DNA of 13,143 bases, taken from a virus (taxonomy: Duplodnaviria > Heunggongvirae > Uroviricota > Caudoviricetes). Under the pieces are notes generated by a model. The model was not told where the DNA came from. It ran no database searches and was given only the letters and a program-made list of their open reading frames with translations. The position numbers and the translations under genes are program-made. Where the stretch lies: positions 1-13,143 of IMG/VR virus record IMGVR_UViG_2617270950_000005. One strand, 5' to 3'. This document shows, piece after piece, positions 1 to 7,178 of the stretch; the stretch's first letter is position 1; each line of letters begins with the position of its first letter.

Positions 1-1
1 A

Positions 2-667
2 CTTCTTAACATGCTGGATATTAAAGGAAAAATCATCACAACTGATGCGATGGGTTGCCAGAAAGATATTGCAGAGAAGATACAAAAACAGGGAGGTGAT
101 TATTTATTCGCGGTAAAAGGAAACCAGGGGCGGCTAAATAAAGCCTTTGAGGAAAAATTTCCGCTGAAAGAATTAAATAATCCAGCGCATGACAGTTACG
201 CAATGAGTGAAAAGAGTCACGGCAGAGAAGAAATCCGTCTTCATATTGTTTGCGATGTCCCTGATGAACTTATTGATTTCACGTTTGAATGGAAAGGGCT
301 GAAGAAATTATGCGTGGCAGTCTCCTTTCGGTCCATAATAGCAGAACAAAAGAAAGAGCTCGAAATGACGGTCAGATATTATATCAGTTCTGCTGATTTA
401 ACCGCAGAGAAGTTCGCCACAGCAATCCGAAACCACTGGCATGTGGAGAATAAGCTGCACTGGCGTCTGGACGTGGTAATGAATGAAGACGACTGCAAAA
501 TAAGAAGAGGAAATGCAGCAGAATTATTTTCAGGGATACGGCACATTGCTATTAATATTTTGACGAATGATAAGGTATTCAAGGCAGGGTTAAGACGTAA
601 GATGCGAAAAGCAGCCATGGACAGAAACTACCTGGCGTCAGTCCTTACGGGGAGCGGGCTTTCGTAA
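2..667 (+). CDS. ydcC: ISAs1-family (H-repeat-associated) transposase, C-terminal part; the gene starts upstream of the window
   Basis: Open frame runs from the window edge to TAA at 665-667. Translation (…[30 protein letters not shown]…[20 protein letters not shown]…) resembles Rhs-associated H-repeat / ISAs1 transposases. Its position upstream of pptA-yddH-nhoA matches the K-12 gene order as I recall it. Confidence 0.75.
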
Positions 668-766
668 TCTTGCCCTGGGCATTATTGTCGTATAAACGCT
701 TTACCGGACACATGACATTCACAATGTGTGTTAATTTTACTGACATCTTTCAAAAGGAGCGTAATC

Positions 767-1000
767 ATGCCGCACATCGACATTAAATGTTTTCCGCGTG
801 AACTGGACGAACAACAAAAAGCAGCACTTGCTGCAGATATTACCGACGTTATTATTCGTCATCTGAACAGTAAAGACAGTTCGATAAGCATTGCTCTACA
901 GCAGATTCAACCAGAATCTTGGCAAGCTATCTGGGATGCCGAAATCGCGCCCCAAATGGAGGCTTTGATAAAGAAACCTGGTTATAGCATGAATGCTTAA
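767..1000 (+). CDS. pptA: Tautomerase PptA (4-oxalocrotonate tautomerase family), 77 aa
   Basis: ATG at 767 lies 7 nt after AAGGAG. The protein begins [13 protein letters not shown], with the N-terminal Pro typical of the tautomerase superfamily. The track ORF 728-1000 starts at an upstream GTG that is probably not used. Confidence 0.85.
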
Positions 1001-1566
1001 CCCGCCGTAACACGCTTGCCGCTGGTAACAAACGTCCCAGCACCTAAATGATGCAACGTATTGAGCTTATCATCATCAAACTGCCAGCGGCCTTCGACAA
1101 ATACCCGTGCGTCTGCCGCTGCTGATACTACTTCGCCAAACAGCGTGTCGTATTCTTCTTGCGCAGAAGTCGCAGGTAGCAATCGACACTCCATCCACGC
1201 CAGACATTTTTCCTCGACCAGAGGCAAACCAAATACCGGGCCTCTCACAACCGGAATGCCATAGCAATTAAATTTATCTTCATCACGCCCCGACACACTT
1301 CCCACCGCCCACGTCCAGTTAGTTGCTGCAACGCCCGGGATAACGATGCCAAATTTACCGTTATGTTCAATCAACTCCCTGGTCCATGTCGATTTATCTA
1401 CCACAATCGCCACGCGTGGAGGTTCAAACTCCACCGGCATTGACCAGGCTGCAGCCATAATGTTACGCCGCTGGGATTGCTCATCGAAACTGGTGATCAA
1501 GACCGTTGGGCCATGATTTAACAGACGGCTGGCATGGTGTAATTCTATGGGGATGAATCGGCTCAT
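997..1566 (-). CDS. yddH: Flavin reductase-like domain protein YddH, 189 aa
   Basis: Minus-strand ORF. The internal Met ([26 protein letters not shown]…) gives the expected length. Convergent with pptA, and the two stop codons overlap. Confidence 0.8.
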
Positions 1567-1738
1567 GGTATCGCCTCGCGAAGAAGGTTTTTTTAAGCGT
1601 AGTCCGTAACGCAATAAGTAACGAAATTAACGGGATTGGCGATTTGCGAACGTGATGCATGTCCGCGATCGCACAAAATAGCCGGTGCGGCGTCTATTCC
1701 AGGTTATAAGTTGAGAAAACCACTAAGGGAAACGCCTG

Positions 1739-2584
1739 ATGACGCCCATTCTGAATCACTATTTTGCCCGTATTAACTGGTCGGGAGCTGCTGCGGTCAA
1801 TATTGATACGCTTCGTGCATTGCACCTGAAACACAATTGCACCATTCCGTTTGAAAACCTCGACGTTTTGCTGCCGAGGGAAATACAGCTTGATAATCAA
1901 TCGCCGGAAGAGAAACTGGTGATAGCCCGTCGTGGCGGTTACTGTTTTGAGCAGAATGGCGTGTTTGAGCGGGTGTTACGCGAGCTGGGGTTTAACGTTC
2001 GCAGCTTGTTAGGGCGCGTAGTGTTATCAAATCCGCCAGCATTACCGCCGCGCACCCATCGTTTGCTGTTGGTGGAACTGGAAGAGGAAAAATGGATTGC
2101 TGATGTCGGTTTCGGTGGGCAGACGCTAACCGCGCCGATTCGTTTAGTTTCCGATCTCGTGCAGACCACGCCACACGGAGAGTATCGGTTGTTGCAGGAG
2201 GGGGATGATTGGGTGTTGCAGTTTAATCATCATCAGCATTGGCAGTCGATGTACCGTTTTGATCTCTGCGAGCAGCAACAAAGCGATTATGTGATGGGCA
2301 ATTTCTGGTCGGCGCACTGGCCGCAGTCGCATTTTCGCCATCATTTGCTGATGTGCCGCCATTTGCCGGACGGCGGCAAGCTGACACTGACCAATTTTCA
2401 TTTTACCCATTATGAAAATGGGCACGCGGTGGAGCAGCGAAATCTACCGGATGTGGCGTCATTATATGCTGTGATGCAAGAACAGTTTGGTCTGGGCGTG
2501 GATGATGCGAAACATGGCTTTACCGTGGATGAGTTAGCGCTGGTGATGGCGGCGTTTGATACGCACCCGGAGGCGGGAAAATAA
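1739..2584 (+). CDS. nhoA: Arylamine N-acetyltransferase (N-hydroxyarylamine O-acetyltransferase), 281 aa
   Basis: 281-aa ORF preceded by AAGGGA. It carries the NAT-family catalytic Cys context (RRGGYCFEQN) and matches the expected gene order after yddH. Confidence 0.9.
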   Translation: MTPILNHYFARINWSGAAAVNIDTLRALHLKHNCTIPFENLDVLLPREIQLDNQSPEEKLVIARRGGYCFEQNGVFERVLRELGFNVRSLLGRVVLSNPPALPPRTHRLLLVELEEEKWIADVGFGGQTLTAPIRLVSDLVQTTPHGEYRLLQEGDDWVLQFNHHQHWQSMYRFDLCEQQQSDYVMGNFWSAHWPQSHFRHHLLMCRHLPDGGKLTLTNFHFTHYENGHAVEQRNLPDVASLYAVMQEQFGLGVDDAKHGFTVDELALVMAAFDTHPEAGK

Positions 2585-2595
2585 TTTATGTCAGG

Positions 2596-2630
2596 TTGCC
2601 GGATGCGGCGTAAACGCCTTATCCGGCATA
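2596..2630. repeat. REP (repetitive extragenic palindromic) element in the nhoA-yddE intergenic region
   Basis: GCCGGATGCGGCGTAAACGCCTTATCCGGC is the classic enterobacterial REP consensus shape. It is flanked by the inverted pair TGTCAGG (2589-2595) and CCTGACA (2650-2656). Confidence 0.6.
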
Positions 2631-2679
2631 CATTAGCCCGGTTGTAGACCTGACAGGCGAAGCGCATCAGACAACGGTT

Positions 2680-2865
2680 TCAGAGTTCAATTGCCCATTC
2701 GGCATGAAACAAAATCACCGCTGTGCCTGAAATGGTGACTTTTTCCGGTTGGTTATCACGAATTGTCACCGTCACTTCAATCATACCGTCACGCCCCAAT
2801 GCGCGCCCCTGATGGCCTTTAACACGCAACACGTTGCCATCGTGGGGCAATTGTAACCAGGTGAA
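2680..2865 (-). pseudogene. yddE: 3' remnant (C-terminal ~62 codons) of PhzF-family isomerase gene yddE, truncated by the prophage insertion
   Basis: Minus-strand frame ending at stop (TCA on plus strand, 2680-2682) translates to …FTWLQLPHDGNVLRVKGHQGRALGRDGMIEVTVTIRDNQPEKVTISGTAVILFHAEWAIEL. This has the G-x-I-x-V-x-V … G-x-A-V pattern of PhzF/YddE C-termini. The frame hits a stop at 2866-2868 where prophage-like sequence begins, with no start codon or N-terminal part. Confidence 0.6.
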
Positions 2866-3101
2866 TCATTTGATACCAACGAGGGTTTTAGTGAAAGGAG
2901 GTGAAATCACCTGTAAGATACTGAAATAAAACAGGTGATGTCTGGATGAGCGCTTAAAGTCTATTTGATATCGATTGTGCAATAATTAATCGTTTATTCT
3001 AAAATCGGCAAAACTTTTGATACTGCGATCTCAACTTTTTAAAGCGTTTAAAACTTCATTAAATCTATATGGCAACTAACATACGGGCCAGCCTCGCCAA
3101 A
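2866..3101. repeat. Putative prophage left-end (attL-like) region with repeated candidate transposase-binding motifs
   Basis: TTTGATAYY occurs three times (2869-2877, 2964-2972, 3016-3024), spaced 95 and 52 bp, similar to the L1/L2/L3 layout of Mu attL. A perfect palindrome AGGTGAAATCACCT lies at 2899-2912 and CAGGTGA recurs at 2932-2938. Confidence 0.35.
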
Positions 3102-3632
3102 CTAACCCGCTTTAGATTCTACCGGATTTGATTGCCTACTTGTCTCGGTTTTTTCCAAAATCTCTCTGACGCAATCGTCTGGCATATCTACAATCATCAA
3201 CGCAGCCAGGCGCTTCCTGCCTTCTAGTTGTAATAAATCCTGGTTTTCTTTATTCAGCAGTGTCAGAACCGTCTCCACACCTTTGCGAGCAAGGAGATTG
3301 GTTAACTGTTCTCGTTCGTCTTTCGTAAGGAATGAAAGCATCTGTGTAAGCTGATCTCCCTTATCACCAGAACAACCAAAATTACCATAAATACCAATAT
3401 CGTTTGGTAATTCACCCTTGCCCTCTTTAAGCCACTCAAGACTAACGCCTTCACTTTCAGAAATTCGTATAAGGATACTTTCTCTGGGGGCTGGTTGTGT
3501 TTGTCCTCCCTTGAAATAGCTGTTTAATGTGTTGATATTGATTCCCCACGCTCTGGCAGCTGCACTTCTTGAAGGGTAGCGCTTTGTAAGCATTCCAATA
3601 CGTTCAATAACAGGTTCTTTTCCCTGCGACAT
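3102..3632 (-). CDS. c: Mu-type repressor (c-like), about 176 aa
   Basis: Leftward ORF divergent from ner, the same position as Mu c. Start taken at ATG (CAT 3630-3632) with AGAGGT 6 nt upstream; the longer track ORF reaching 3707 is an unsupported N-terminal extension. N-terminal region (RIGMLTKRYPSRSAAARAWGININTLNSYFKGG) looks like an HTH. Confidence 0.65.
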   Translation of the reverse strand: MSQGKEPVIERIGMLTKRYPSRSAAARAWGININTLNSYFKGGQTQPAPRESILIRISESEGVSLEWLKEGKGELPNDIGIYGNFGCSGDKGDQLTQMLSFLTKDEREQLTNLLARKGVETVLTLLNKENQDLLQLEGRKRLAALMIVDMPDDCVREILEKTETSRQSNPVESKAG

Positions 3633-3707
3633 AAAGATACCTCTTGGTGCTTTTCTAAGGAAAGGTTTCTTTCTATTTATCCAATTGAAAAATAAGGATA
3701 AAAGCAA

Positions 3708-3822
3708 AAATTAGCCAAAATACCAAAAATACCTTGATTTGGTATTTTTGGTGATGCATTATTTACCCGTACAGATATCCGCACGAATATCCGCGCGGGT
3801 AACTTTTTAGAATAGAGGAAGT
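3708..3822. promoter_or_regulatory. Divergent early promoter/operator region between repressor and ner
   Basis: CCAAAATACC at 3715-3724. Inverted repeat CCAAAAATACC (3723-3733) / GGTATTTTTGG (3741-3751). Tandem 12-bp direct repeats GATATCCGCACG (3774-3785) and AATATCCGCGCG (3786-3797) just upstream of ner. TTGATT at 3734-3739 is a possible -35. Confidence 0.55.
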
Positions 3823-4071
3823 ATGAGTAGAAGAGAAGTTTCAGATCACGATTGGCCGCCTGAAATCATCAAGGCGCGCTTACACATGGCTGGCTTATCA
3901 CTGCGCTCTTTATCTTTAAAGGCTGGTTACAGCAGGGATTCGCTGAAAAGCGTATTACGTACTCCTTGCCGACCGTATCAGCAAATAATTGCTGATGCTC
4001 TTGGGGTATCACCTGAAGAAATCTGGCCCAGTCGATACCAGGTTAAGAGCTATATGAGAAAGGCGTCATGA
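3823..4071 (+). CDS. ner: Ner-like DNA-binding transcriptional regulator, 82 aa
   Basis: Protein has Ner/Nlp family hallmarks (…QIIADALGVSPEEIWPSRYQ…). AGAGGAAG RBS. Sits immediately upstream of the transposase gene as in Mu. Confidence 0.85.
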   Translation: MSRREVSDHDWPPEIIKARLHMAGLSLRSLSLKAGYSRDSLKSVLRTPCRPYQQIIADALGVSPEEIWPSRYQVKSYMRKAS

Positions 4072-6199: not shown

Positions 6200-6245
6200 T
6201 GAGGTTTCAGTCTCGGAGAATGCTGTCTCAAGCGAGGTGAATAAT

Positions 6246-7178
6246 ATGACCGATATTAACGATGTAATCAAGACCATTGATGAACTTATTGATGGCGGCG
6301 TACTGACGCAGTATGCCATCGCCAGAGAGGCGGGAATTTCCGACGGCACATTATCGGCTTTCCGTAAGGGAAAATATAAAGGCGATAACGCTGCTGTGGC
6401 TGCTTCCCTGCGCTCCTGGTATGAGAACTGGAATAAACAAAGCGCACTGCCGGAACCGCCGCAGTTTGTGGAAACTCAGACAGTCCAGGAGCTGCGCGCA
6501 CTGTTTCAGGCGGTTCGCCTGATGGGCTGTATTAACGTTATTGTGGGCGTACCGGGTGTGGGTAAAACGGCCACTGCCCGTAATTACTGCCAGGAGCAAC
6601 CAAACACCTGGATGATCACCCTGTCACCCGCGCACTCCAGCGTCACGGAGTGTCTGCTGGAGCTGGCCGATGCGCTGGGGATTGATTACACCCGCGCGAA
6701 CAAAGGGGCATTATCCCGCGCCATCCGCCGTCGCCTGATGGGAACGCGTGGACTGGTGATTGTGGATGAGGCGGATCATCTTGGTATTGACGGTCTGGAG
6801 CAACTCCGGGCAATTCAGGACGCCACGGGGATCGGGATGGTGCTTATTGGTAACCCGCGCGGATTGTTTAAAGGTGGACGCCGCGCCTTTGATGATTTAT
6901 CGCGCCTGTTCAGCCGTCTTGCCCGTACAAAACAACTTCGCAAGGCCAAAAAGGCGGATGTGCTGGCCATTGCCATGGCGTGGGGGATCAGTGGTGAGGC
7001 CGAGCTGGCCGTCATGCAGGCTATCGCTGAAAAGCCGGGAGCGTTACGCGTTCTGACACATACGCTTAACCAGGCGTGGCTCACCGCCAGCGGTGAAGGC
7101 GCGGCGCTGACAGAAAAACATATTAATGCGGCCTTTAAAGAGGTTTATACCAACCCTGAATTACTCTCACAGGTGTGA
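6246..7178 (+). CDS. B: MuB-like AAA+ ATPase (transposition target-DNA activator), about 310 aa
   Basis: Walker A GVPGVGKT and Walker B-like LVIVDEAD. N-terminal HTH-like region. Start moved to ATG 6246 just after GAGGTGA; the track start at 6237 is a GTG inside the RBS. Confidence 0.9.
   Translation: MTDINDVIKTIDELIDGGVLTQYAIAREAGISDGTLSAFRKGKYKGDNAAVAASLRSWYENWNKQSALPEPPQFVETQTVQELRALFQAVRLMGCINVIVGVPGVGKTATARNYCQEQPNTWMITLSPAHSSVTECLLELADALGIDYTRANKGALSRAIRRRLMGTRGLVIVDEADHLGIDGLEQLRAIQDATGIGMVLIGNPRGLFKGGRRAFDDLSRLFSRLARTKQLRKAKKADVLAIAMAWGISGEAELAVMQAIAEKPGALRVLTHTLNQAWLTASGEGAALTEKHINAAFKEVYTNPELLSQV

Follow-up and report, generated by a model that had tools for sequence, protein, structure and literature searches.

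The left end of a Mu-like prophage, carried in the 13,143-bp stretch of DNA analysed here (the window), raises the question of which proteins read the short repeats that are concentrated there. In the original prediction, three TTTGATAYY motifs beginning at 2869, 2964 and 3016 were proposed as transposase-binding sites of the L1/L2/L3 kind, and a palindrome and a CAGGTGA word located between the first two of them were considered to attract a second DNA-binding factor.

Window positions 1-2851 represent E. coli chromosome that is 99.9% identical to K-12-type strains (the nhoA-yddE flank), and from position 2852 on there follows the leftmost 10.3 kb of an Sp18-type, Mu-like prophage, Sp18 being an element known since the genome of E. 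coli O157:H7 Sakai was reported. Among 5,426 complete E. coli genomes none carries a prophage in yddE or this junction, while the prophage family itself is present in approximately 230 of them, including many Shiga-toxin-producing strains. The source may be a laboratory lysogen or one that has otherwise escaped sampling. At many other chromosomal sites, matches to the prophage start without exception at window 2845-2852, and the seven independent insertions that were read agree fully in their left end (TGTAACCAGG) and in their right end (GCCGCGCTATA). The Mu-like region of GenBank LC727895 is annotated from the same T (window 2852), and the 4-bp duplication of Sp18 is likewise already annotated in GenBank. 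The position of the breakpoint, on which the original prediction depended, is at 2851/2852 and leaves every motif in phage DNA, at least 17 bp from the terminus. The only Rfam match came from the REP region of the host flank and was partial and sub-threshold (naRNA4, 34 bits, the gathering score being 59.5); it is unconnected with the end motifs.

The Sp18-type element is a live transposable phage, since insertions flanked by target duplications occur at many independent sites and since packaging of Sp18 DNA is efficient and Mu-like particles have been observed (PMC2669165). The prophages nearest to that of the window, in JKHS016 (L001 15957-25468) and DLI.5a (L006 30396-40727), are internally rearranged or deleted, one of them to approximately 10 kb; both retain intact ends with target duplications.

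The features of the window are collected in the table. The repressor-like protein is 40-53% identical to the proteins in the same position in Yersinia phage vB_YpM_5 (hereafter YpM_5) and Tongde, it matched no Pfam family, and no similarity between it and the N-terminus of the transposase was found. The inverted repeat located between the repressor-like and ner-like genes is probably an operator/enhancer region; it has ATACC in common with the end motif, an observation that stands apart from the end sites.

Table. Coordinates of host and prophage features in the 13,143-bp window; designations of end sites and of the spacer are predicted.
Feature	Position	Strand	Remarks
nhoA	1739-2584		Host gene
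REP element	2598-2640		Downstream of nhoA, host DNA
yddE 3' remnant (PhzF-family isomerase)	2680-2851	-	Interrupted by the prophage insertion; Pfam PhzC-PhzF, C-terminal part only
Left terminus (5'-TG, TGTAACC...) and outer part of putative L1, TGTAACCAGGTGAATCA	2852-2868	+	Seven other insertions and the GenBank annotation begin at the same T
Putative L1 core, ATTTGATACC	2868-2877	+	TTGATA from element nt 19; R1 and Kp4866-3 equally far from the terminus
TTTGATAYY copy 1	2869-2877	+	TTTGATACC
L1-L2 spacer with AGGTGA cluster	2878-2962		Candidate pac site
Putative L2 core, ATTTGATATC	2963-2972	+	Sakai Sp18 has TTTGATACC here
TTTGATAYY copy 2	2964-2972	+	TTTGATATC
Putative L3 core, TTTTGATACT	3015-3024	+	L1-L3 = 147 bp
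TTTGATAYY copy 3	3016-3024	+	TTTGATACT
Repressor-like gene (c position)	3102-3707	-	ORF of 201 aa; annotated in relatives as a 176-aa hypothetical/regulatory protein
Inverted repeat, 12-bp arms ACCAAAAATACC...GGTATTTTTGGT	3722-3752		Between the repressor-like and ner-like genes
ner-like gene, winged HTH	3823-4071	+	Pfam HTH_35, E = 2.5e-19
Transposase A, 696 aa	4073-6163	+	Pfam Mu-transpos_C (2e-17), Mu DNA-binding domain (2e-6), weak rve core matches
MuB-like AAA+ transposition protein	6237-7178	+	Pfam Phage-MuB_C (8e-25), AAA_22

Exact pattern matching located TTTGATAYY three times in the window, all on the plus strand and spaced 95 and 52 bp apart, precisely as had been described. Shuffles of the window gave 0.53 matches on average, and three matches were attained in 2 of 200 shuffles. 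The motifs are situated 17, 112 and 164 bp inside the element (their TTGATA begins at nt 19, 114 and 166 from the terminus), and the sole base of the motif that varies among prophage copies is the Y at position 2971. Comparison with the 96.8%-identical copy LC727895 gave no signal of constraint, attL having two differences and neighbouring 250-bp bins two to four.

The right end of the prophage is outside the window and was consequently taken from Sakai Sp18 and from JKHS016, the latter being 99.7-99.8% identical to the left part in the window. Both carry three further copies of the motif, inverted (minus strand) and all pointing inward, as the original prediction anticipated for the opposite end; read inward, the sequence is TATAGCGCGGCGATTTTTTTGATACCGATTTGCATTTCATTTGATACCGCTG...CTTATTTGATACT, with TTGATA beginning at nt 19, 41 and 76 and with R1 and R2 22 bp apart. 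In Sakai Sp18 there are three copies at each end in opposite orientation, and these six sites have little in common outside a core of 8-10 bp. A seventh TTTGATACC is present in Sakai Sp18, on the minus strand of the A-B intergenic region (L002 3929-3937), and is absent from the window; the A-B interval is also the stretch of the window most divergent from LC727895 (32 differences per 250 bp).

The same core recurs in relatives, at both ends of related phages and prophages. YpM_5, Tongde and Klebsiella phage Kp4866-3, whose transposases are respectively 80%, 56% and 57% identical to that of the window, carry TTTGATAC three times at each end, the right-end copies being at positions 19, 41 and 75-76. 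Eight of ten prophages of other Enterobacterales species have the same triplet approximately 1.2 kb upstream of a transposase gene whose product is 55-58% identical to that of the window. Across the 24 sites compared, only (A)TTTGATAC(Y) is conserved, the TTGATAC core being invariant. In SuMu no comparable motif was found in the stretches examined. As regards the extent of these comparisons, the record of ST405-OXA48phi1.1 begins inside the repressor gene and the left end of Pseudomonas phage VW-6B is trimmed.

The TTTGATA repeats might instead be sites for IHF, as their reverse complement contains TATCAA, which resembles the IHF consensus WATCAANNNNTTR; indeed, L1 and L3 fit this consensus on the minus strand with one mismatch. 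However, matches of that quality occur in the window at chance level (15 found against 14.3 expected), for which reason this reading of TATCAA was rejected. In addition, the invariant part of the core includes GATAC and so reaches beyond the IHF core, two sites 22 bp apart cannot both be occupied by IHF, and the core changes with the transposase (to CAAGATAAC or TTYTGGAC) in hosts that have the same IHF consensus, all of which renders an IHF origin of the repeats extremely improbable.

The dependence of the motif on the transposase is apparent from three comparisons. Firstly, prophages of Shigella flexneri and E. coli represented by loci L022 and L023 carry TTCAAGATAA three times at the left end (L022 8735-8920) in place of TTTGATAC, and their transposases are 85-97% identical to that of the window from residue 201 on but only 42-45% identical in residues 121-200, so that these prophages look like a natural specificity swap. 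All phages with TTTGATAC, in contrast, even those at 55% overall identity, keep R-x-LSEI(T/S)LKRW(I/V)A within transposase residues ~121-200. Secondly, VW-6B, with a transposase 47% identical to that of the window, has TTYTGGAC three times, the first two copies being 22 bp apart, and its right terminus TGTAGCGCGGCG is homologous to that of the Sp18 type with TG at the homologous position. Thirdly, YpM_5 (L003) and Tongde (L005) are 'Muvirus' mosaics in which the small and large terminases (gp27 and gp28) are 97.6-100% identical to those of Mu (gp27 itself 99.5-100%) and the packaging and late genes are Mu's own, while the early region, comprising repressor, transposase and ends, is of the Sp18 kind, with a transposase only 22-28% identical to MuA; their ends carry TTTGATAC and not the Mu motif. 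Because of these three comparisons, the motif is considered to co-vary with the transposase, namely with its residues ~121-200, thereby bearing out the suggestion of a divergent end-recognition specificity.

Considering the position, number, orientation, spacing and conservation of the cores, together with this co-variation, a case about as firm as sequences can make, we conclude that the stretch from window 2852 to approximately 3030 is very probably attL in a transposable, Mu-like prophage of the Sp18 type, with the transposase sites L1, L2 and L3 represented by the cores at 2869, 2964 and 3016. In the proposed mechanism, monomers of the DDE transposase would use an N-terminal DNA-binding region (residues ~120-200) to bind L1-L3 and, on the right, the inverted R1-R3. 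A transpososome would then form from the paired ends, cleave them at the termini (5'-TG on the left, ...TA-3' on the right) and join them to a target whose strands are cut 4 bp apart.

The terminal bases and the length of the target duplication were read from the insertions. The right terminus reads ...CGCTATA, and hence ends in TA, at all seven junctions (e.g. L002 39319-39325 and L001 32453-32459), while the right termini of Mu and VW-6B end in CA, which reads TG in the inward direction; on the left, the Sp18 type has the usual TG. YpM_5, Tongde and the prophages of loci L022 and L029 may begin with TA at the left end too. The target duplication is 4 bp in each of the seven insertions (TAAG, TAAA, ACTG, GATA, GAAT, TTCT and ACAT), a fifth target base agreeing in only three of the seven on the left side and in two of the seven on the right. 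The positions concerned are window 2848-2852 and loci L001, L002, L006, L007-L014 and L032.

As regards the protein, the transposase profile matches domain I-alpha of MuA (1TNS), retroviral integrase cores and the MuA structure 4FCY, its I-alpha and C-terminal parts being MuA-like. Sequence searches gave no match to the I-beta/I-gamma domains in the transposase. Modelling of residues 70-300 from the single sequence reached a pLDDT of 51.8, and a full-length model based on 121 close homologues, a shallow set of proteins 77-97% identical, one of 49.6, with confident prediction only at residues 1-70 and ~100-190; a Foldseek comparison of this poor-quality model with the PDB returned no match with E <= 0.001.

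The second group of repeats is found in the spacer between L1 and L2. The sequence AGGTGAAATCACCT at 2899-2912 had been described as a perfect palindrome, which holds for its 6-bp arms (AGGTGA/TCACCT, fully complementary) but not for the central AA, which is not self-complementary, so that the reverse strand fits the 14-mer with two mismatches. The CAGGTGA at 2932-2938 is present as described, and two elements had been overlooked: CAGGTGA occurs again at 2858-2864, and GAAATCACCTGT (2903-2914) and ACAGGTGATGTC (2931-2942) form a longer inverted repeat, complementary at 11 of 12 positions. Repeats of GTGAA/TGAAA occur in the spacer at 2891, 2901 and 2921. Counting both strands, four copies of AGGTGA fall within 100 bp (span 2858-2942), a density that none of 2000 block shuffles of the window attained. 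The first CAGGTGA may belong to the transposase site L1 and not to the cluster, since it is located in the outer part of L1, where relatives keep an AGG(G/T)RAATCA-like stretch.

The suggestion that a second DNA-binding factor acts here is the less secure part of the original prediction; the cluster is non-random, but its palindrome is imperfect at the centre. An accessory transposition factor, be it HU, IHF, the phage repressor or a second domain of the transposase, could be envisaged, as the first copy is located inside L1 and the cluster occupies the L1-L2 spacer, the segment that in Mu must bend for transpososome assembly. The AGGTGA repeats are, however, missing at the right end, and no relative with TTTGATAC sites and a transposase 55-80% identical has them; this transposase family can evidently do without the repeats. 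HU, moreover, has no sequence specificity, and the repressor-ner intergenic region contains no CAGGTGA, the nearest copies being inside the ner-like and transposase genes. An accessory role in transposition is accordingly decidedly unlikely, and a small terminase appears the more likely factor to bind the AGGTGA repeats.

Two further explanations of the cluster were weighed. The inverted repeat at 2903-2942, of which the palindrome is a part, might act as RNA, the leftward transcript of the repressor gene ending in a hairpin that serves as terminator or stabiliser. The minus strand folds into a 9-bp stem with 2 bp more (-13.4 kcal/mol, z = -3.9, no shuffle being as good), which comes after the stop codon of the repressor gene and precedes a U-rich stretch. 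Its loop is 16 nt long, though, and its tail UUUCACCUCCUUUC is interrupted and provides no clean U-run; the terminator scan made no call, the 259-nt region as a whole shows no unusual degree of structure (z = -1.1), and the hairpin matched no Rfam family and would not account for the further direct copies at 2858 and 2899, making a role as RNA very unlikely. Alternatively, the cluster might be functionless, having arisen by chance or through internal duplication of the terminal ~26 bp and decay of the copy (2852-2877 compared with 2892-2923). In favour of this, TGTAACCAGGTGAATCATTTGATAC aligns with TGAAAGGAGGTGAAATCACCTGTAAGATAC, and AGGTGA is a common Shine-Dalgarno-like word with 15 copies in the window. 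The alignment is, however, marginal (99 of 2000 shuffles score equally) and TRF called no tandem repeat, on which grounds a decayed tandem copy of the terminus was rejected; furthermore, the four-copy cluster was never reproduced by shuffling, and the efficiently packaged Sp18 needs a pac site yet is devoid of the Mu-type block. We therefore regard the absence of any function as unlikely.

This last point leads to the packaging site. Sp18 must possess a pac site because its DNA is efficiently packaged. The pac site of Mu has reportedly been mapped to approximately nt 32-54, and we take the L1-L2 spacer of the window to correspond in position to that block (CGGGAGGACATTGGATTATTCGG). Mu and every relative carry CCGGGA(G/A)..(T)GGA(T/A)..CGGGA..GGGAT just inside L1 (nt 31-66 in Mu), and a block of the CGGGAGGACATTGGATTATTCGG type is present in YpM_5, Tongde, Kp4866-3 and loci L022-L031 and absent from the window. 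This difference is accompanied by a difference in gp27: phages with the Mu-type block keep KLSR(S/T)GLNR(Y/L)A at residues ~55-66 even where gp27 is only 45% identical overall to that of Mu, whereas Sp18-type gp27, although 57% identical overall, has QLSPAAISREA at that segment, together with AGGTGA repeats in the spacer. The co-variation of gp27 and spacer amounts to one evolutionary switch, with the gp27 helix assumed to be the reader of the DNA, and no phage in the collection provided the reciprocal swap, that is, an Sp18-type gp27 combined with an early region of another kind. From these sequence relationships we tentatively suggest, as the most probable of the roles considered and with confidence a little short of even, that the inverted and direct AGGTGA repeats of the spacer may be a pac site read by a small terminase of the gp27 family, and not transposition sites.

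Taken together, the two groups of repeats would be consistent with Sp18-type phages having re-targeted both recognition steps at the Mu left end, that of the transposase (TTTGATAC, with a TA right terminus and a 4-bp stagger) and that of the small terminase (an AGGTGA-repeat pac site in place of CCGGGA/GGGAT). Such a double change is possible, although we would lean somewhat against it; if it is true, the hybrids (YpM_5 and Tongde on the one hand, and the L022-type replacement of residues 121-200 on the other) would map which protein segment reads which DNA word.

A literature search did not locate a paper describing the end sites of Sp18-type phages. These sites are apparently undescribed for this phage group; elements of this kind are known, and sites of this sort are ordinary in them. 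Knowing precisely where the left end of this prophage family lies, and which cis-acting sites it is likely to use, aids prophage annotation and mini-element design, and the natural swaps of domains and sites constitute material for understanding the choice of DNA by Mu-family transposases and small terminases. In mechanism, the TA terminus and the duplication of 4 bp depart from Mu in small ways, and the established picture of transposable phages is not overturned.

The closest parallel to the end sites is found in attL and attR of Mu. In both systems the sites lie at the extreme ends, three per end, in an element in which c, ner, A and B follow the same order, and the conserved inner half of the first site is approximately 19-26 nt from the terminus (CGAAA at 22-26 in Mu). 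R1 and R2 abut at 22 bp, L1 and L2 are separated by a long spacer, the left terminus is 5'-TG, and the L1-L3 distance of 147 bp compares with 145 bp in Mu, all in agreement with the Mu attL-like layout that had been proposed. The sites differ from those of Mu in their core, TTTGATAC replacing the MuA consensus: the 22-bp MuA consensus finds four Mu sites as a control (L1 at 6-27, L3 at 151-172, R2 and R3) but has no match in the window within three mismatches, in keeping with the original view that the motif is unlike MuA sites. Further differences are that the three right-end sites face in the same direction whereas R3 of Mu is inverted, that the right terminus is TA and not CA, that the target duplication is 4 bp and not the 5 bp of Mu, that transposase and MuA share only 22% identity, and that the repressor is without similarity to the transposase N-terminus, while in Mu the repressor and MuA have a common N-terminal DNA-binding domain.

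Among nearer relatives, YpM_5, Tongde, Kp4866-3 and the related Enterobacterales prophages (transposases 55-80% identical) resemble the window in the core TTTGATAC and in the count, orientation and right-end spacing of the sites; they differ in having a Mu-like CCGGGA..CGGGA..GGGAT block without AGGTGA repeats in the L1-L2 spacer, and the L1-L2 distance ranges from 70 to 106 bp among them. The L022/L023 prophages and VW-6B share the three-site layout, and their termini are homologous, but their cores differ (TTCAAGATAA and TTYTGGAC, respectively), each matching divergence in transposase residues ~121-200. The candidate pac site, finally, is like that of Mu, as reportedly mapped, in its location relative to L1 and L2, in its repeated short words that are partly ~10 bp apart (2891, 2901 and 2921), and in that a small terminase of the gp27 family is encoded by the same phage type; it is unlike it in bearing no sequence similarity to the Mu block and in including inverted repeats.
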